Origin: Escherichia phage vB_Eco_BCPEco_001
Length of the DNA stretch: 64,000 nucleotides
Reading direction: 5' to 3' (one strand)
Sequence record: PV295200.1
The translations under genes were made by a program, and so were the position numbers. A model generated the notes under the pieces. It had not been told where the DNA came from, searched no databases, and saw nothing but the letters and a program-made list of their open reading frames with translations. Positions 23,988 through 63,371 of the stretch are shown piece after piece. Within the stretch, counting starts at the first letter, position 1. The number at the start of each line of letters is the position of its first letter.

Positions 23988-24463
23988 TTGTAAAATATAT
24001 CAAGGGCGATATTGTCGCCCTATTTCTTCAAGGTAATATTATTGCGCACGGGTGCAATTGCTTCCACACAATGGGCTCTGGCGTAGCAGGTCAATTAGCA
24101 AGAGCCTATCCCAAAATTTTAGAAATAGATAAAACCACTACCGAGTACGGTTCTCGTGATAAATTAGGCGATATGTCTATTGTTTTTAAACATAGTCCTA
24201 CGGGATTTGGTATATGCTATAACCTGTATACACAATACGAACCGGGTCCTAATCTTGATTATGGTGCTTTAGTAAACTGCATGATAGAATTAAATCTACA
24301 GGCAGAAACCCTTTTGTTTAAACCAGTAATTTACATTCCACGCATAGGTTGCGGTATTGCTGGCGGCGATTGGGATAAGGTTTCTAAATTAATCGACATG
24401 TTTACTCCTGATATTGATTTAATAGTGGTGGATTATGAAAGTACATTACCCGCATCCGTTTGA
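23984..24463 (+). CDS. macro-domain protein (predicted ADP-ribose binding/hydrolysing)
   Basis: 159 aa; KGDIVALFLQGNIIAHGCNCFHTMGSGVAGQLARAYP fits the macro-domain pattern (GDI...h-h-N-x-N...G-x-GV-A). Confidence 0.55.
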   Translation: MIVKYIKGDIVALFLQGNIIAHGCNCFHTMGSGVAGQLARAYPKILEIDKTTTEYGSRDKLGDMSIVFKHSPTGFGICYNLYTQYEPGPNLDYGALVNCMIELNLQAETLLFKPVIYIPRIGCGIAGGDWDKVSKLIDMFTPDIDLIVVDYESTLPASV

Positions 24464-30854: not shown

Positions 30855-31823
30855 ATGAAAACTGTAACTATCAATAAGGGTATCTACTTTGGTAAAGAAA
30901 TCTCTGGAACTTTTGAGCTCTTAGGCGAATGGTTCCCAGATAATGCTCCGGTGGATGCACAAGGAGATGGTAAAGTTTTTGTTGAAATTGACGGTAAGCG
31001 TCGCGGTGTTTGGGTTTACAAATCAGACATTTCATATGATGGTGTAAAAGTTGAAGAAGTTAAAGAATCATATGAAGATATGAAAACCCGCATTAATAAA
31101 AGATTTAATGTTATGGGAATGATGACGAATGGTATTATTAACGGAAACATTCGTTCATTAATTATCTCTGGTGCGGCGGGTATTGGTAAAACGTATTCTT
31201 TAGATAAAGCTTTAAATAAAGCAAATGATATTGGATACATTGAGTATAAAAGCATTAATGGTAAAATCTCAGGTATCGGTCTTTATGAGCAGCTCTGGAA
31301 TAATCGTGAAGAGAATTCTGTCCTTTTGATTGATGATGTGGATGTTTTCTCTGATATGGACATTCTTAATCTTCTGAAAGCTGCTCTGGACACTGGAGAG
31401 ACCCGTAAAGTCTGCTGGAGCACTGCATCTTCTTACTTAGAAGAAAAAGGCATTGACCGTGAGTTTGAATTTAAAGGAACAATTGTTTTTATCACAAACG
31501 TTGATATTGACCGCGAATTAGACCGTGGTACTAAACTTGCTCCACATTTACAAGCATTAGTGTCCCGCTCAGTTTATTTAGATTTGGGTGTTCACACTAA
31601 TGAAGAAATTATGGTCAGGGTTGAAGATGTTATTCTTTCAACCGACATGATGCAAAAGCGCGGTCTTTCTGATGAAGAAACTTATAAAGCATTATCATGG
31701 ATGAAAGTCAATGTTAACCGTTTACGTAATGTTTCACTGCGTACTGCACTTTATCTTGCTGACTTTATTATGACCGACAAAAACGGTTGGGAAGAAATCG
31801 CTGAAACGGTATTGTTAAAATGA
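30855..31823 (+). CDS. P-loop ATPase (AAA-like)
   Basis: 322 aa from MKTVTINKG; Walker A GAAGIGKT, Walker B VLLIDDVD; track ORF 30687 is an upstream extension through the promoter. Confidence 0.6.
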   Translation: MKTVTINKGIYFGKEISGTFELLGEWFPDNAPVDAQGDGKVFVEIDGKRRGVWVYKSDISYDGVKVEEVKESYEDMKTRINKRFNVMGMMTNGIINGNIRSLIISGAAGIGKTYSLDKALNKANDIGYIEYKSINGKISGIGLYEQLWNNREENSVLLIDDVDVFSDMDILNLLKAALDTGETRKVCWSTASSYLEEKGIDREFEFKGTIVFITNVDIDRELDRGTKLAPHLQALVSRSVYLDLGVHTNEEIMVRVEDVILSTDMMQKRGLSDEETYKALSWMKVNVNRLRNVSLRTALYLADFIMTDKNGWEEIAETVLLK

Positions 31824-32539
31824 AAAAATATTTTACTATCTATAAAACTGAAATATTAAATTTAAAGACTGGCGTTAAGAAATATTATTATGGTCGACAT
31901 ATAACTAATAATATCAATGATTCGTATGTTGGTAGTGGAAATTATATAGAACGTGTAAAAGTGTCAAATGACCACATATTATCAAAAACGGTTTTAGAAG
32001 TTTTTGATAATTATGATAAAATGGTACAAGCTGAAATATTATATATCATGGCAGGTAAATTGAAATATGGAAAAAACTGTGTTAACCTGTCATACGGGGG
32101 TGAAGGAGGAAAGGTTGCAGATGAAACTAGAATAAAATGCAAAAAGCATTCTATAAATTTATGGAAAAATCCTAATCATATACAGCATATGAAGAAAAAG
32201 ATGAAAGAGGTCACATCCACGCCGGAAGCTAAATTAAACACTTCAATAAAAACTTCGCAACGATATAAGGACCCGGTTTTTGTTAGAAAAGTTAGTAATA
32301 TTATTAAAAAGAAACTAAGCAATCCTGCAGTAAAAGAAAAGCATATTAATGGAATTAAAGCTGCAAAGCGTTCTCATTTAACTATATGGCAGTATGAAGA
32401 TGAATTATTCGAGCTTTGGAAAGAAACTAAATGTGGATGGAGAAAATTTACAAAGGAAGCTATAAAACACGGATATCCAAATGAACCGTATCGTAGTATG
32501 GTATCAACTTTTCAGAAAAGACATTTAGAAGAATCCTAA
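31820..32539 (+). CDS. GIY-YIG homing endonuclease (Seg-like)
   Basis: 239 aa; KKYYYGRHITNNINDSYVGSG GIY-YIG-type N-terminus; basic C-terminal DNA-binding-like region; ATGA-coupled to the upstream ATPase. Confidence 0.6.
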   Translation: MKKYFTIYKTEILNLKTGVKKYYYGRHITNNINDSYVGSGNYIERVKVSNDHILSKTVLEVFDNYDKMVQAEILYIMAGKLKYGKNCVNLSYGGEGGKVADETRIKCKKHSINLWKNPNHIQHMKKKMKEVTSTPEAKLNTSIKTSQRYKDPVFVRKVSNIIKKKLSNPAVKEKHINGIKAAKRSHLTIWQYEDELFELWKETKCGWRKFTKEAIKHGYPNEPYRSMVSTFQKRHLEES

Positions 32540-47425: not shown

Positions 47426-48628
47426 ATGAAAGTATGTATTTTTATGGCTCGAGGTCTTGAAGGTTGCGGTGTAACTAAATTTTCTCTTGAGCAACGTGAT
47501 TGGTTCATTAAAAATGGCCATGAAGTAACTCTAGTTTATGCTAAAGATAAATCATTTACTCGTACAAGTTCTCATGACCACAAATCATTTTCAATTCCAG
47601 TTATTTTAGCTAAAGAATACGATAAAGCACTTAAACTGATTAATGATTGTGATATTTTAATTATTAATTCTGTTCCTGCTACTTCCGTTCAAGAAGCCAC
47701 GATTAATAACTATAAAAAAATTATTGATAACATTAAACCTTCAGTTCGTGTTGTAGTTTATCAACATGACCATTCTTCTCTTTCTTTGCGCCGAAATTTG
47801 GGATTAGAAGAAACTGTTCGTCGAGCTGATGTTATTTTTAGTCATTCTGATAATGGTGATTTTAATAAAGTTCTGATGAAAGAATGGTATCCAGAAACTG
47901 TTTCTTTGTTTGATGATATTGAAGAAGCACCGACTGTATACAACTTTCAGCCTCCTATGGATATTGCGAAGGTTCGATCAACCTACTGGAAAGATGTTTC
48001 TGAAATTAACATGAATGTCAACCGCTGGATTGGTCGTACGACTACATGGAAAGGTTTTTATCAGATGTTTGATTTTCACGAAAAACATCTTAAACCTGCT
48101 GGGCTAAGTACTATTATGGAAGGTCTGGAACGTTCTCCAGCGTTCATTCCTATTAAAGAAAAAGGAATTCCATATGAGTATTATCGTCTTCATCAAGTAG
48201 ACCAAATTAAAATTGCTCCTAATTTGCCAACGCAAATTCTTGACCGTTATGTAAATAGCGAAATGCTTGAACGCATGAGTAAATCTGGATTTGGTTATCA
48301 GCTGAGTAAGTTGGACAAAAAATATCTACAACGTTCTTTAGAATATACTCATCTCGAGCTTGGTGCATGTGGAACAATTCCAGTATTTTGGAAATCTACT
48401 GGCGAAAATTTAAAATTCCGTGTTGATAATACTCCGTTAATTTCTCATGATAGTGGTATCGTTTGGTTTGATGAAAATGACATGGAATCAGCATTTGAGC
48501 GTATTAAAGAACTGTCATCTGACCGAACTCTTTATGACCGTGAACGCGAAAAAGCTTATGAATTTTTGTATCAGCATCAAGATTCAAGCTTCTGCTTTAA
48601 AGAACAGTTTGACATTATTACAAAATAA
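47426..48628 (+). CDS. a-gt: DNA alpha-glucosyltransferase
   Basis: 400 aa; MKVCIFMARGLEGCGVTKFSLEQRDWFIKNGHEVTLVYAKDKSFTR is near-identical to T4 a-gt from memory; followed by the hairpin agggcttcggccct. Confidence 0.9.
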   Translation: MKVCIFMARGLEGCGVTKFSLEQRDWFIKNGHEVTLVYAKDKSFTRTSSHDHKSFSIPVILAKEYDKALKLINDCDILIINSVPATSVQEATINNYKKIIDNIKPSVRVVVYQHDHSSLSLRRNLGLEETVRRADVIFSHSDNGDFNKVLMKEWYPETVSLFDDIEEAPTVYNFQPPMDIAKVRSTYWKDVSEINMNVNRWIGRTTTWKGFYQMFDFHEKHLKPAGLSTIMEGLERSPAFIPIKEKGIPYEYYRLHQVDQIKIAPNLPTQILDRYVNSEMLERMSKSGFGYQLSKLDKKYLQRSLEYTHLELGACGTIPVFWKSTGENLKFRVDNTPLISHDSGIVWFDENDMESAFERIKELSSDRTLYDREREKAYEFLYQHQDSSFCFKEQFDIITK

Positions 48629-56229: not shown

Positions 56230-58926
56230 ATGAAAGAATTTTATATCTCTATTGAAACAGTCGGAAATAACATTGTTGAACGTTATATTGATGAAAACGG
56301 AAAGGAACGTACTCGTGAAGTAGAATATCTTCCGACTATGTTTAGGCATTGTAAGGAAGAGTCAAAATACAAAGACATCTATGGTAAAAACTGCGCTCCT
56401 CAAAAATTTCCATCAATGAAAGATGCTCGAGATTGGATGAAGCGAATGGAAGACATCGGTCTCGAAGCTCTCGGTATGAACGATTTTAAACTCGCTTATA
56501 TCAGTGATACGTATGGTTCAGAAATTGTTTATGACCGAAAATTTGTTCGTGTAGCTAACTGCGACATTGAGGTTACTGGTGATAAATTTCCTGACCCAAT
56601 GAAAGCTGAATATGAAATTGATGCTATCACTCATTACGATTCAATTGACGATCGTTTTTATGTTTTCGACCTTTTGAATTCAATGTACGGTTCAGTATCA
56701 AAATGGGATGCAAAGTTAGCTGCTAAGCTTGACTGTGAAGGCGGTGATGAAGTTCCTCAAGAAATTCTTGACAGAGTAATTTATATGCCATTCGATAATG
56801 AGCGTGATATGCTCATGGAATATATCAATCTCTGGGAACAGAAACGACCTGCTATTTTTACCGGTTGGAATATTGAGGGGTTTGACGTTCCGTATATCAT
56901 GAATCGCGTTAAAATGATTCTGGGCGAACGTAGTATGAAACGCTTCTCTCCAATCGGTCGAGTAAAATCTAAACTAATTCAAAATATGTACGGTAGCAAA
57001 GAAATTTATTCTATTGATGGCGTATCTATTCTTGATTATTTAGATTTGTACAAGAAATTCGCATTTACTAATTTGCCGTCATTCTCTTTGGAATCAGTTG
57101 CTCAACATGAAACCAAAAAAGGTAAATTACCATACGACGGTCCTATTAATAAACTTCGTGAGACTAATCATCAACGATACATTAGTTATAACATCATTGA
57201 CGTAGAATCAGTTCAAGCAATTGATAAAATTCGTGGGTTTATCGATCTAGTTTTAAGTATGTCTTATTACGCTAAAATGCCTTTTTCTGGTGTAATGAGT
57301 CCTATTAAAACTTGGGATGCTATTATTTTTAACTCATTGAAAGGTGAACACAAGGTTATTCCTCAGCAAGGTTCGCACGTTAAACAAAGTTTTCCGGGTG
57401 CATTTGTATTTGAACCTAAACCAATTGCTCGTCGATATATTATGAGTTTTGACTTGACGTCTCTGTATCCTAGCATTATTCGTCAGGTTAACATTAGTCC
57501 TGAAACTATTCGTGGTCAGTTCAAAGTTCATCCAATTCATGAATATATCGCAGGAACAGCTCCTAAACCGAGTGATGAATATTCTTGTTCTCCGAATGGA
57601 TGGATGTATGATAAGCATCAAGAAGGTATCATTCCAAAGGAAATCGCTAAAGTATTTTTCCAGCGTAAAGACTGGAAAAAGAAAATGTTCGCTGAAGAAA
57701 TGAATGCCGAAGCTATTAAAAAGATTATTATGAAAGGCGCAGGGTCTTGTTCAACTAAACCAGAAGTTGAACGATATGTTAAGTTCAGTGATGATTTCTT
57801 AAATGAACTATCGAATTATACTGAATCTGTTCTCAATAGTCTGATTGAAGAATGTGAAAAAGCGGCTACACTTGCTAATACAAATCAGCTAAACCGTAAA
57901 ATTCTTATTAACAGTCTTTATGGTGCTCTTGGTAATATTCATTTCCGTTACTATGATTTGCGAAATGCTACTGCTATCACAATTTTTGGCCAAGTCGGTA
58001 TTCAGTGGATTGCTCGTAAAATTAATGAATATCTGAATAAAGTATGCGGAACTAATGGTGAAGATTTCATCGCAGCAGGTGATACTGATTCGGTATATGT
58101 TTGTGTAGATAAAGTTATTGAAAAAGTTGGTCTTGACCGATTCAAAGAGCAGAACGATTTGGTTGAATTTATGAATCAGTTCGGTAAGAAAAAGATGGAA
58201 CCTATGATTGATGTTGCATATCGTGAGTTATGTGATTATATGAATAACCGCGAGCATCTGATGCATATGGACCGTGAAGCTATTTCTTGCCCTCCACTTG
58301 GTTCAAAGGGCGTTGGTGGATTTTGGAAAGCGAAAAAGCGTTATGCTCTGAACGTTTATGATATGGAAGATAAGCGATTTGCTGAACCACATCTAAAAAT
58401 CATGGGTATGGAAACTCAGCAGAGTTCAACACCAAAAGCAGTGCAAGAAGCTCTCGAAGAAAGTATTCGTCGTATTCTTCAGGAAGGTGAAGAGTCTGTC
58501 CAAGAATATTACAAGAGCTTCGAGAAAGAATATCGTCAACTTGACTATAAAGTTATTGCTGAAGTAAAAACTGCGAACGATATAGCGAAATATGATGATA
58601 AAGGTTGGCCAGGATTTAAATGCCCGTTCCATATTCGTGGTGTGCTAACTTATCGTCGAGCTGTTAGTGGTCTGGGTGTAGCTCCAATTTTGGATGGAAA
58701 TAAGGTAATGGTTCTTCCATTGCGTGAAGGAAATCCGTTTGGTGACAAGTGCATTGCTTGGCCGTCAGGCACAGAACTTCCAAAAGAAATTCGTTCTGAC
58801 GTACTGTCGTGGATTGACTACTCAACTTTGTTCCAAAAATCGTTTGTTAAACCGCTTGCGGGTATGTGTGAATCGGCTGGTATGGACTATGAGGAAAAAG
58901 CTTCGTTAGACTTCCTGTTTGGCTGA
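56230..58926 (+). CDS. 43: DNA polymerase gp43 (family B)
   Basis: 898 aa; MKEFYISIETVGNNIVERYIDENGKERTREVEYLP matches T4 gp43 from memory; polymerase motifs DLTSLYPSII and AAGDTDS. Confidence 0.95.
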   Translation: MKEFYISIETVGNNIVERYIDENGKERTREVEYLPTMFRHCKEESKYKDIYGKNCAPQKFPSMKDARDWMKRMEDIGLEALGMNDFKLAYISDTYGSEIVYDRKFVRVANCDIEVTGDKFPDPMKAEYEIDAITHYDSIDDRFYVFDLLNSMYGSVSKWDAKLAAKLDCEGGDEVPQEILDRVIYMPFDNERDMLMEYINLWEQKRPAIFTGWNIEGFDVPYIMNRVKMILGERSMKRFSPIGRVKSKLIQNMYGSKEIYSIDGVSILDYLDLYKKFAFTNLPSFSLESVAQHETKKGKLPYDGPINKLRETNHQRYISYNIIDVESVQAIDKIRGFIDLVLSMSYYAKMPFSGVMSPIKTWDAIIFNSLKGEHKVIPQQGSHVKQSFPGAFVFEPKPIARRYIMSFDLTSLYPSIIRQVNISPETIRGQFKVHPIHEYIAGTAPKPSDEYSCSPNGWMYDKHQEGIIPKEIAKVFFQRKDWKKKMFAEEMNAEAIKKIIMKGAGSCSTKPEVERYVKFSDDFLNELSNYTESVLNSLIEECEKAATLANTNQLNRKILINSLYGALGNIHFRYYDLRNATAITIFGQVGIQWIARKINEYLNKVCGTNGEDFIAAGDTDSVYVCVDKVIEKVGLDRFKEQNDLVEFMNQFGKKKMEPMIDVAYRELCDYMNNREHLMHMDREAISCPPLGSKGVGGFWKAKKRYALNVYDMEDKRFAEPHLKIMGMETQQSSTPKAVQEALEESIRRILQEGEESVQEYYKSFEKEYRQLDYKVIAEVKTANDIAKYDDKGWPGFKCPFHIRGVLTYRRAVSGLGVAPILDGNKVMVLPLREGNPFGDKCIAWPSGTELPKEIRSDVLSWIDYSTLFQKSFVKPLAGMCESAGMDYEEKASLDFLFG

Positions 58927-59495: not shown

Positions 59496-59747
59496 ATGGA
59501 AACTTTAGTAGCAGGTTCAATTTTTATGGTTTTAGTTTCAGGTGTGTTGGCTATTATTATATACATGCTTCCATGGTTTATCGCCTTGATGCGTGGGTCA
59601 AAATCGACAGTAGGAATCTTTTTCACATCTTTACTGTTTAACTGGTCAATTATTGGTTGGTTTATTACATTTATTTGGTCAATTGCGGGTGAAACTAAAA
59701 AGTCTGTACAGCCAAATCAAGTAATTATCATCAGAGAGAAGGAATGA
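59496..59747 (+). CDS. imm: immunity to superinfection membrane protein Imm
   Basis: 83 aa, two TM helices; METLVAGSIFMVLVSGVLAIIIYMLPWFIALMRG matches T4 Imm from memory. Confidence 0.85.
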   Translation: METLVAGSIFMVLVSGVLAIIIYMLPWFIALMRGSKSTVGIFFTSLLFNWSIIGWFITFIWSIAGETKKSVQPNQVIIIREKE

Positions 59748-59893
59748 AAAGCAAAATTATAGCAGCATTGCTTTTAATCTTGATGGTTATAATAAGTATA
59801 TACTATAGCGTAACAGTTCCTGCTATGATTCCAACTCTTATCATAGGGTGGGGTTTATTACTGTTACAATTTAAATATGAATGCATCAATTGA
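59744..59893 (+). CDS. small hydrophobic membrane peptide
   Basis: 49 aa ORF MKSKIIAALLLILMVIISIYYSV..., ATGA-coupled to imm; below the track cutoff. Confidence 0.4.
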   Translation: MKSKIIAALLLILMVIISIYYSVTVPAMIPTLIIGWGLLLLQFKYECIN

Positions 59894-59900
59894 GGTTTAA

Positions 59901-60641
59901 ATGATTAATGACTCTATGACAGTTGAAGAAATCCGTCTTCATTTGGGGCTTGCATTAAAAGAAAAAGATTTCGTAGTTGATAAAACTGGCGTTAAAACTA
60001 TTGAAATTATTGGCGCATCATTTGTAGCAGATGAACCGTTTATTTTTGGCGCTCTTAATGATGAATACATTCAGCGTGAACTTGAATGGTATAAATCTAA
60101 GAGCTTGTTCGTTAAAGATATTCCGGGTGAAACACCGAAGATTTGGCAACAAGTAGCATCTTCTAAAGGTGAAATTAACTCGAATTATGGCTGGGCTATC
60201 TGGTCAGAAGATAACTATGCCCAGTATGATATGTGTTTAGCTGAACTTGGTCAAAATCCTGATTCTCGACGTGGTATCATGATTTATACTCGTCCATCTA
60301 TGCAGTTTGACTACAATAAAGATGGTATGTCAGATTTCATGTGTACTAATACAGTACAGTACCTGATTCGTGATAAGAAAGTCAATGCAGTTGTTAATAT
60401 GAGAAGCAATGACTGCTGGGCAGGCTATCGTAATGATTATGCATGGCAAAAATACGTACTAGATAAATTAGTATCTGATTTGAATGCAGGCGACCCATCG
60501 CGGCAATATAAAGCAGGTTCTATTATATGGAACGTTGGAAGTCTTCATGTGTACGAAAATCAGTTTTATTTAGTTGACCATTGGTGGAACACTGGTGAAA
60601 CTCATATTGCTAAAAAGGATTATACTGGAAAATGGAAGTAA
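59901..60641 (+). CDS. 42: dCMP hydroxymethylase gp42
   Basis: 246 aa as in T4 gp42; thymidylate-synthase-like fold motifs; SD GAGG. Confidence 0.9.
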   Translation: MINDSMTVEEIRLHLGLALKEKDFVVDKTGVKTIEIIGASFVADEPFIFGALNDEYIQRELEWYKSKSLFVKDIPGETPKIWQQVASSKGEINSNYGWAIWSEDNYAQYDMCLAELGQNPDSRRGIMIYTRPSMQFDYNKDGMSDFMCTNTVQYLIRDKKVNAVVNMRSNDCWAGYRNDYAWQKYVLDKLVSDLNAGDPSRQYKAGSIIWNVGSLHVYENQFYLVDHWWNTGETHIAKKDYTGKWK

Positions 60642-61273
60642 ATGTGCCACATGTTTATAAGTATAAACATCCTAAAACTAAAAAGTGGTATATAGGAAGT
60701 CATGATGGTCACAACCCAAATTATGATGGTTCGGGTGTAGTTTGGCAACATGCTAAAAAGAAATATGGAATAAAATCCTTTAATAAAGAAATATTATATG
60801 AAGGACCAATGTTTAGACAGGTTGAAGAAATTATTTTAACTTGTTTAGATGCTGCTAATTGTCCGGATTCATATAATTTAAAGAATGAAGCATGGGGAGG
60901 AAGTTTTCCAGGCAAATTAAATGGAATGTACGGTAAAAAACTATCTCCAGAAGAAAGATATAAGTGCGGAAATGCCTTTCGTGGAATCAAGCGTCCTGAT
61001 CATTCTAAAAGAATGAAAGGCGAAGGTAATCCAATGTATGGTAAAAATGAGCAGGCATATGGAATTATAAATCGAGCAAAGGAAAATTCTGGTAAAACTT
61101 ATGAAGAAATTTTTGGCGCAGAAAAAGCTAAAATAATTAAAGAAACGATGTCTAAAAATCGTAAAGGAAAACCTCATAATTTGATAGAAAAAATATGTCC
61201 GCATTGCGGACTAAAAGGACGTGGGCCAAATATGACAAGATACCATTTTGACAAATGTAAGGCACTTAAATGA
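60632..61273 (+). CDS. GIY-YIG homing endonuclease (Seg-like)
   Basis: 213 aa; KKWYIGSHDGHNPNYDGSG GIY-YIG-type N-terminus; basic C-terminus with CPHCG zinc-finger-like motif; overlaps the gene 42 end by 10 nt. Confidence 0.6.
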   Translation: MEVNVPHVYKYKHPKTKKWYIGSHDGHNPNYDGSGVVWQHAKKKYGIKSFNKEILYEGPMFRQVEEIILTCLDAANCPDSYNLKNEAWGGSFPGKLNGMYGKKLSPEERYKCGNAFRGIKRPDHSKRMKGEGNPMYGKNEQAYGIINRAKENSGKTYEEIFGAEKAKIIKETMSKNRKGKPHNLIEKICPHCGLKGRGPNMTRYHFDKCKALK

Positions 61274-62112
61274 TTCAATTCGTAATTCCAAGTTATCAGC
61301 GTGTCGGGGCAGTTTCTGCCCTTGATATGTTTCCGACTGATTATGAACCCCATATTGTAGTGCGTGAACATGAAGAAAAAGCTTATTATGATGCCTATGG
61401 GTCTAGAGCTAAAATTATAACTATTCCTGATGATGTAAACGGAATTGCCGGTACTCGTAAAGCAATTACTGATATGTATGCAGGTCAACGAATCTGGATG
61501 ATTGACGACGATACTACTATTCGTATGAGTTCAATGCGAAAAAGAGATGACCGTCGTTGCGTGGATAAAGTCAATCAATTGACTCATGAACAGTTCTATG
61601 AATTGATTCAATACGTCGAAGATGCCATGGATTGCGGGTATTATCACGGTCATGCTCGCCTACCAATTTTTAAAATTACTTCATCTTGGGGTAATTATCG
61701 TGAAAATTCATATGGATTCACGAATACATGGTATGACCTTGGAAAACTTACGACAGAACAAATTGGGTATGGAAAAATTGATTTATGCGAAGATATGTAT
61801 GCATTTCTCAATTTAATTAATCAAGGTTATCCGCATTTGGCCTTGTTCAAATATCTAGTTGTATCTGGAAAATCACACGCTCCCGGTGGATGTAGTTCAA
61901 TTCGTAGTAATTCTAAACATAATAGAGCGCTTGAGCAAATCAATAGAGAGTTTCCAGAGCAAGCTCGTTGGAAAACATCGAATATTGAAAAACGAAAATC
62001 GTTGGGTGAAGAAGACGAGCCATTAAAGGTTCTTCGCATGTGTGTTTCGCGTAAAGAAAAATCAGAAGCATTTCATAAGTTTAATGCTATTCATCCAATA
62101 GCAGTTGATTAA
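61270..62112 (+). CDS. putative DNA glycosyltransferase (GT-A fold, DxD) at the beta-gt locus
   Basis: 280 aa; IWMIDDDTTIR DxD motif; does not resemble T4 beta-gt as recalled (351 aa); sits between 42 and uvsX where T-even phages carry a DNA glucosyltransferase. Confidence 0.55.
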   Translation: MIQFVIPSYQRVGAVSALDMFPTDYEPHIVVREHEEKAYYDAYGSRAKIITIPDDVNGIAGTRKAITDMYAGQRIWMIDDDTTIRMSSMRKRDDRRCVDKVNQLTHEQFYELIQYVEDAMDCGYYHGHARLPIFKITSSWGNYRENSYGFTNTWYDLGKLTTEQIGYGKIDLCEDMYAFLNLINQGYPHLALFKYLVVSGKSHAPGGCSSIRSNSKHNRALEQINREFPEQARWKTSNIEKRKSLGEEDEPLKVLRMCVSRKEKSEAFHKFNAIHPIAVD

Positions 62113-62189
62113 TGCCTAAATTTATTGTGTTATAATTACTCTATCTTTAACCAGTGAGGAAAATATAATGATGCCTATGGAAAAAATGA

Positions 62190-63371
62190 ATGTCTATTGC
62201 AGATTTAAAATCCCGTTTGATTAAAGCTTCCACTTCTAAAATGACTGCTGAACTGACTACATCTAAATTCTTTAATGAAAAGGATGTAATCCGTACAAAA
62301 ATCCCAATGCTTAATATTGCTATTTCTGGTGCGATTGATGGCGGTATGCAGTCTGGTTTAACTATTTTCGCAGGTCCTTCTAAACACTTTAAATCAAATA
62401 TGTCTTTGACTATGGTTGCGGCATATTTGAACAAATATCCTGATGCAGTTTGTCTATTCTATGATAGCGAATTTGGTATTACTCCAGCTTATTTGCGATC
62501 CATGGGAGTTGACCCGGAACGAGTAATTCATACGCCAATTCAGTCAGTTGAACAGCTGAAAATTGATATGGTGAATCAGCTTGAAGCTATTGAGCGTGGT
62601 GAAAAGGTTATTGTATTCATCGACTCAATTGGTAATATGGCTTCTAAGAAAGAAACGGAAGATGCCTTGAATGAAAAATCTGTGGCAGATATGACTCGTG
62701 CTAAATCACTGAAGTCATTATTCCGTATTGTTACTCCTTATTTTAGCATTAAAAATATTCCATGTGTTGCGGTTAACCATACAATTGAAACCATTGAAAT
62801 GTTTAGTAAAACCGTGATGACAGGTGGTACAGGCGTAATGTATTCAGCTGATACTGTATTCATTATCGGTAAGCGTCAGATTAAAGATGGTTCTGATCTT
62901 CAGGGGTATCAATTTGTTCTAAATGTAGAAAAATCTCGTACCGTTAAAGAAAAAAGTAAATTCTTTATTGATGTTAAATTTGACGGTGGTATCGATCCTT
63001 ATTCTGGATTGTTAGATATGGCTCTAGAATTAGGATTTGTAGTAAAACCTAAAAATGGCTGGTATGCTCGTGAATTTCTTGACGAAGAAACTGGCGAGAT
63101 GATTCGCGAAGAAAAATCTTGGCGTGCAAAAGATACTAACTGCACTACATTCTGGGGTCCTTTATTTAAGCATCAACCATTCCGAGATGCTATTAAACGT
63201 GCTTATCAGTTAGGTGCTATTGATAGTAATGAAATTGTTGAAGCTGAAGTTGATGAATTGATTAACTCAAAGGTTGAAAAATTTAAATCTCCAGAAAGTA
63301 AAAGTAAATCAGCAGCTGATTTAGAAACTGACCTCGAGCAGTTAAGTGATATGGAAGAATTTAATGAATAA
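62190..63371 (+). CDS. uvsX: recombinase UvsX (RecA-like)
   Basis: 393 aa; MSIADLKSRLIKASTSKMTAELTTSKFFNEKDVIRTKIPMLNIAISG matches T4 UvsX from memory; Walker A GPSKHFKS. Confidence 0.9.
   Translation: MSIADLKSRLIKASTSKMTAELTTSKFFNEKDVIRTKIPMLNIAISGAIDGGMQSGLTIFAGPSKHFKSNMSLTMVAAYLNKYPDAVCLFYDSEFGITPAYLRSMGVDPERVIHTPIQSVEQLKIDMVNQLEAIERGEKVIVFIDSIGNMASKKETEDALNEKSVADMTRAKSLKSLFRIVTPYFSIKNIPCVAVNHTIETIEMFSKTVMTGGTGVMYSADTVFIIGKRQIKDGSDLQGYQFVLNVEKSRTVKEKSKFFIDVKFDGGIDPYSGLLDMALELGFVVKPKNGWYAREFLDEETGEMIREEKSWRAKDTNCTTFWGPLFKHQPFRDAIKRAYQLGAIDSNEIVEAEVDELINSKVEKFKSPESKSKSAADLETDLEQLSDMEEFNE

Follow-up and report, generated by a model that had tools for sequence, protein, structure and literature searches.

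A predicted T2/T6-type beta-glucosyl-HMC-alpha-glucosyltransferase at the beta-gt position of Escherichia phage vB_Eco_BCPEco_001

In phages T2 and T6, about 75% of the hmC in the DNA is glucosylated by an alpha-glucosyltransferase (alpha-gt), after which a second glucose is attached through a beta-1,6 linkage, yielding gentiobiosyl-hmC (PMC6024577; PMC13216743). Deletion of the gene for the second enzyme in T6 converts gentiobiosyl-hmC to alpha-glucosyl-hmC; the resulting DNA, with about 75% alpha-glucosyl-hmC, is a substrate of BapA, and the phage becomes more sensitive to Brig1 (PMC11078745; bioRxiv 10.64898/2026.02.25.707755). The T2/T6-type enzyme therefore extends a glycan, its acceptor being a glucose that is already attached. 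The TET-associated glycosyltransferases (TAGT; Pfam PF20691) and the trypanosome JGT share with it a GT-A fold, an R...DDD...ED.Y motif and a beta-glycosidic product on a DNA adduct derived from a hydroxymethyl pyrimidine, but they act on the bare hydroxymethyl base, and they are associated with a TET/5mYOX oxygenase, whereas the T2/T6-type enzyme is paired with a thymidylate-synthase-type hydroxymethylase. The T4 beta-glucosyltransferase (beta-gt; PF09198) resembles the T2/T6-type enzyme, here called ggt, in genomic position, UDP-glucose donor, beta-linked product and a role in the protection of hmC-DNA; unlike ggt, it acts on bare hmC, and the two differ in length (351 versus 280 aa) and fold (GT-B versus GT-A) and share no sequence similarity. 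Genes for beta-gt and alpha-gt co-occur in only 6 of 753 genomes (PMC13216743).

Our analysis concerns a gene at 61270..62112 (+) in a 64-kb window, the stretch of 64,000 nucleotides of phage vB_Eco_BCPEco_001 that was examined here (PV295200.1). A sequence-only reading had described it as a 280-aa DxD-motif protein at a locus where T2/T6-type phages carry a beta-1,6-glucosyl-HMC-alpha-glucosyltransferase, and both statements are borne out: the frame opens with ATG, is intact and encodes 280 aa with an invariant triple aspartate, and across its full length the protein shares 98% identity with the T6 (275/280 residues; YP_010067197.1) and T2 enzymes, with five substitutions relative to each. 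It matches PHROG 842, "beta-glucosyl-HMC-alpha-glucosyltransferase", over residues 1-275 (E 3e-88), the family of the T6 and T2 proteins, and Pfam PF20691 over profile positions 2-205 of 205, with 38.3 bits against a curated gathering cut-off of 27.5; NCBIfam holds no model for it. Differences from T2 comprise 28 synonymous and 5 non-synonymous changes (dN/dS 0.042), and those from T6 comprise 31 and 4 (dN/dS 0.030). Given the intact frame, the retention of the invariant residues and these low ratios, the gene is, as judged by its sequence, functional and under strong purifying selection. We conclude that it very probably encodes a T2/T6-type beta-glucosyl-HMC-alpha-glucosyltransferase (ggt or ba-gt; TAGT family, GT-A fold), adding a second glucose and producing gentiobiosyl-hmC.

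A search of PDB chains with the ggt protein returned chance matches only (E > 1), and since no solved structure was detectable by sequence, the fold was tested with a model. An alignment of 10 homologs, reaching down to 32% identity, formed the basis both for the conservation analysis and for an AlphaFold2 model, which attained moderate confidence overall (pTM 0.75, mean pLDDT 71.5), with values above 80 for the first 80 residues and low-confidence loops (pLDDT <50) at residues 131-140 and 194-211. Foldseek comparison of this model with the PDB placed GT-A glycosyltransferases at the top (AvpGT, WrtF, K4CP and TarS; E about 5e-5). A GT-B fold with two Rossmann domains was also considered and rejected, the matches being of the GT-A type instead. 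Bacterial GT-A enzymes of the GT2 family, including S. aureus TarP/TarS, WrtF and the catalytic domains of cellulose and chondroitin synthases, are only 7-15% identical to ggt, and they glycosylate polysaccharide, teichoic-acid or lipid-linked acceptors, not DNA.

The 10 homologs all retain R63, D79-D80-D81, D175 and Y177, and E174 is conserved in almost all of them. R63 (codon at 61456..61458, +) is the arginine of a G-T-R motif, the three aspartates (61504..61512, +) form a DxD-type motif at the end of a predicted strand spanning residues 74-79, and E174-D175-M176-Y177 (61789..61800, +) constitute an ED.Y motif in a candidate catalytic base region. Together they match R...DDD...EDY/F, the published active-site motif of phage GT-A DNA glycosyltransferases and trypanosome JGT (bioRxiv 10.1101/2023.12.21.572611), the last element of which is E-D-M-Y in ggt, a single residue separating D from Y. 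Motif conservation, the predicted structure and its Foldseek matches jointly support the label of a GT-A (DxD) glycosyltransferase that the gene had been given on first inspection. In GT-A enzymes the DxD motif holds the metal and the diphosphate, and formation of a beta product from UDP-alpha-glucose implies inverting transfer. By analogy, D79-D80-D81 most likely bind a divalent cation and the UDP diphosphate. The catalytic base is presumably an acidic residue, plausibly E174 or D175, and the published motif indicates that this pair most likely serves as the base of an inverting transfer from an alpha-linked donor to a beta-linked product.

The genes around ggt follow the T-even 43-42-uvsX-40-41 order found in the annotations of T4, T6 and T2. 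Upstream lie the DNA polymerase gene (56230..58926), a DUF5481 ORF, imm and gene 42 (59901..60641, +), which encodes the dCMP hydroxymethylase responsible for hmC supply (Pfam Thymidylat_synt; syntenic with the annotated gene 42 of T4 and T6); uvsX (62190..63371) and gene 40 follow downstream. The location by genes 42 and uvsX, the alpha-gt partner and the invariant motifs are all common to the window and to T6 and T2. The partner gene is intact at 47426..48628 (+), matches Pfam AGT (PF11440, E 3.6e-240) and encodes a protein 92% identical to the alpha-gt of T4 and 93% identical to that of T6, so that the T4-like alpha-gt noted earlier at this position is indeed present. The placement of ggt between 42 and uvsX likewise holds, but ggt is not the sole gene there, because a second ORF, of 213 aa (60632..61273, +), sits between gene 42 and ggt.

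This additional ORF encodes a free-standing GIY-YIG (Seg-like) homing endonuclease, going by its match to PHROG 314 (homing endonuclease, E 1.8e-31), 32% identity to T4 SegA and a weak match to group I intron endonucleases. Relative to T2 and T6 it interrupts the 42/ggt junction as a clean insert of about 630 bp, and apart from this ORF, which in the window separates ggt from gene 42, the order 43, DUF5481 ORF, imm, 42, ggt, uvsX, 40 is that of T6 and T2. It begins within the last nucleotides of gene 42, and its stop codon shares the sequence ATGA with the start codon of ggt; alignment with T2 and T6 shows that this stop-start overlap is preserved despite the insertion. Consequently, ggt is now coupled to the endonuclease ORF and not to gene 42, an exchange that could alter ggt expression. 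At a minimum of 95% identity the endonuclease ORF occurs in 77 phage records, compared with 474 carrying ggt at 90% identity or more. Within the last 74 or so nucleotides of gene 42 (about 60560..60641), we counted by eye some 16 differences from T6 (about 22%), as against about 4% in ggt. A homing-associated co-conversion tract, or a target site that has been altered, would be expected to produce such a pattern.

With these components, the pathway in this phage may be pictured as follows. The gene 42 product would make hydroxymethyl-dCMP, and the phage polymerase would place hmC into DNA. The alpha-gt would then add an alpha-linked glucose to roughly three quarters of the hmC, and ggt, using UDP-glucose, would extend this glucose with another in beta-1,6 linkage, as in T2 and T6, to give gentiobiosyl-hmC. 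This interpretation, in line with the gentiobiosyl-hmC that the sequence-only reading had suggested, is supported by the 98% identity to the T6 and T2 enzymes, the shared locus, the presence of alpha-gt, the T6 deletion result and the lack of similarity to beta-gt. Our sequence and model data show the identity and integrity of the gene, the purifying selection on it, its fold class and conserved motifs, the partner genes beside it and the lack of a T4-type beta-gt. The chemistry of the enzyme and the effect of its deletion are taken from the T6/T2 literature; what individual residues do, and how much of the hmC is di-glucosylated in this phage, are what we infer here. Gene content thus predicts DNA that contains hmC, alpha-glucosyl-hmC and gentiobiosyl-hmC and is free of beta-mono-glucosyl-hmC, a composition that bears on which defences can act on the phage. 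Brig1 excises alpha-glucosyl-hmC and leaves T6 DNA, which is mostly gentiobiosylated, undegraded; BapA cannot strip glucose from gentiobiosyl-hmC; and GmrSD reportedly targets both alpha-glucosyl- and gentiobiosyl-hmC (PMC11078745; bioRxiv 10.64898/2026.02.25.707755; PMC13216743).

Could the enzyme instead replace T4 beta-gt in function as well as in position, adding a single beta-glucose to the hmC that alpha-gt leaves free? The locus is that of T4 beta-gt, and both enzymes form beta linkages. The gene had already been judged not to be of the T4 type, and alignment agrees: the best BLASTP match between ggt and T4 beta-gt has an E value of 0.29 over 10 residues, PF09198 finds no Pfam match in the ggt protein, and tblastn with T4 beta-gt retrieves nothing from the 64-kb window even at E <= 10. 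In the absence of such similarity, the beta-gt position is evidently held by a different enzyme, one with a GT-A fold where beta-gt has GT-B (PMC13216743), and HPLC/MS of wild phages with the same gene set found no beta-mono-glucosyl-hmC (PMC13390438); functional replacement of beta-gt has next to no chance of being correct. A location of beta-gt elsewhere in the genome was also considered and rejected, as tblastn gave only a chance match (E 3.7) in the complete 170-kb PV368562.1, the closest complete genome, from which the gene appears to be absent. A specificity different from that of T6 ggt, either for another sugar donor or for direct glycosylation of bare hmC, is suggested by the TAGT family, some members of which act directly on 5hmC/5hmU, as JGT does on the bare base, and by the occurrence of a TAGT homolog with neither alpha-GT nor beta-GT in 288 of 753 phage genomes; the window protein also carries S202/H203, unlike T2 and T6, near a conserved loop. 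Against this stand the 98% identity to characterised enzymes with each invariant position kept, the presence of the same alpha-gt partner and the roughly 25% bare hmC that T2 and T6 retain although they carry the enzyme, which argues that it does not act on bare hmC in those phages. We consider a divergent specificity very unlikely. Nor does ggt look like a remnant that is decaying or has lost its function. A lesion in the gene is present in both public T6 genome records, evidence that laboratory stocks can lose or damage it, but the window copy has neither stop nor frameshift, retains all invariant residues and evolves at a dN/dS of 0.03-0.04, which makes decay a negligible prospect.

The T2/T6-type assignment leaves a quantitative question, namely how much of the hmC is di-glucosylated. 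Levels of gentiobiosyl-hmC differ widely among phages with nearly identical enzymes: T2 has about 5% and T6 about 72%, and the wild Durham Tequatrovirus isolates EL, BGP and Geo have about 40%, HPLC/MS having given hmC, alpha-glucosyl-hmC and gentiobiosyl-hmC at about 1:2:2 (PMC13390438). Since the same gene accompanies such different levels, the gentiobiosylated fraction cannot be read from it, and the presence of ggt is no guarantee of T6-like DNA. An outcome as in T2, with the same enzyme modifying only a few percent of sites, is possible but somewhat doubtful for this phage; in that case the DNA would consist essentially of alpha-mono-glucosyl-hmC, with bare hmC at about 25%, and sensitivity to defences would follow T2 and not T6. 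The T2 gene is intact and 98% identical, yet is accompanied by only about 5% gentiobiosyl-hmC; Y40, D55 and the full DDD are common to the window allele and T2, and translational coupling of 42 to ggt has been replaced through the endonuclease insertion. On the other side, R11, H106 and P251 are common to the window and T6, which makes the allele a mosaic, and no residue is known to determine the level; about 40% gentiobiosyl-hmC was measured by HPLC/MS in wild Tequatrovirus isolates with the same gene set (PMC13390438); and strong purifying selection argues for a function that matters. Designation of the allele as T2-like or T6-like by its substitutions was attempted and abandoned, because it combines features of both with two private residues, S202/H203, where T2 and T6 have A202/Q203. 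These residues lie in a low-confidence loop of the model, beside the invariant P205-G206-G207. There is a small chance that they, together with coupling to the endonuclease ORF, confer a di-glucosylation level, or a glycan, unlike that of either T2 or T6; were this so, it could help explain the long-known gap between 5% and 72% in phages with near-identical enzymes.

How common is the T2/T6-type arrangement? By tblastn, ggt was detected in 688 of 50,697 phage records; alpha-gt is present in 652 records. At 90% identity or above, nearly all of the ggt-bearing records are Tequatrovirus phages of Escherichia, Shigella, Yersinia and Salmonella; about 200 further records, at 60-80% identity, belong to T4-like phages of Klebsiella, Enterobacter and Citrobacter. 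The combination of ggt and alpha-gt is the norm in T4-like phages, with T4 as the outlier, in agreement with PMC13216743. The contrast with T4 implied by the sequence-only reading therefore does not set this phage apart. Gene and pathway were already known, and the finding is correct but ordinary, adding nothing new to biology since the arrangement is standard in Tequatrovirus phages. The practical gain is that an ORF annotated only as "hypothetical protein" in the closest deposited genome, that of Salmonella phage vB_Sen_BCPSen_003 (PV368562.1), can now be named; the protein it encodes is 100% identical to ggt.

A consensus scan of 59700-62400 found 9 promoter-like sites, against 11.6 expected from shuffled sequence, and 3 terminator-like sites, against 1.3; as we do not regard this as above shuffled sequence, no dedicated promoter or terminator is claimed. 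One terminator-like element, a G+C-rich hairpin with a T-rich tail, lies inside ggt codons 13-18 (61306..61322, +): GGGGCAGTTTCTGCCCT TGATATGTTT. The window, T2 and the two T6 records agree at every position between the hairpin and about codon 27, with synonymous changes in the flanking codons (n = 4 sequences).

The public T6 records deserve comment, their lesions contrasting with the intact ggt of T2 and of the window. In MH550421.1, a CAG-to-TAG change creates an amber stop at codon 10, and the CDS is annotated from Met20; in AP018814/NC_054907, one Asp codon of the invariant DDD has been lost in frame. These lesions could be stock-specific mutations or sequencing errors, and they matter wherever T6 serves as the gentiobiosyl-hmC reference.

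The window aligns with PV368562.1, in which nearly all genes are annotated "hypothetical protein", in four blocks of 97.5%, 98.9%, 99.5% and 99.2% identity, with two indel regions; it is thus closely related to that record but distinct from it. Its first 6.2 kb align to the end of that linear record, an offset attributable to a different permutation of the genome, and a segment of about 310 bp at 24125-24431 is replaced relative to it. About 720 bp absent from PV368562.1 are filled by a 239-aa ORF (31820..32539, +), which has no Pfam match at E <= 0.01. With its GIY-YIG-like N-terminus (YYYGRH...YVGSG), this ORF probably encodes another mobile endonuclease.
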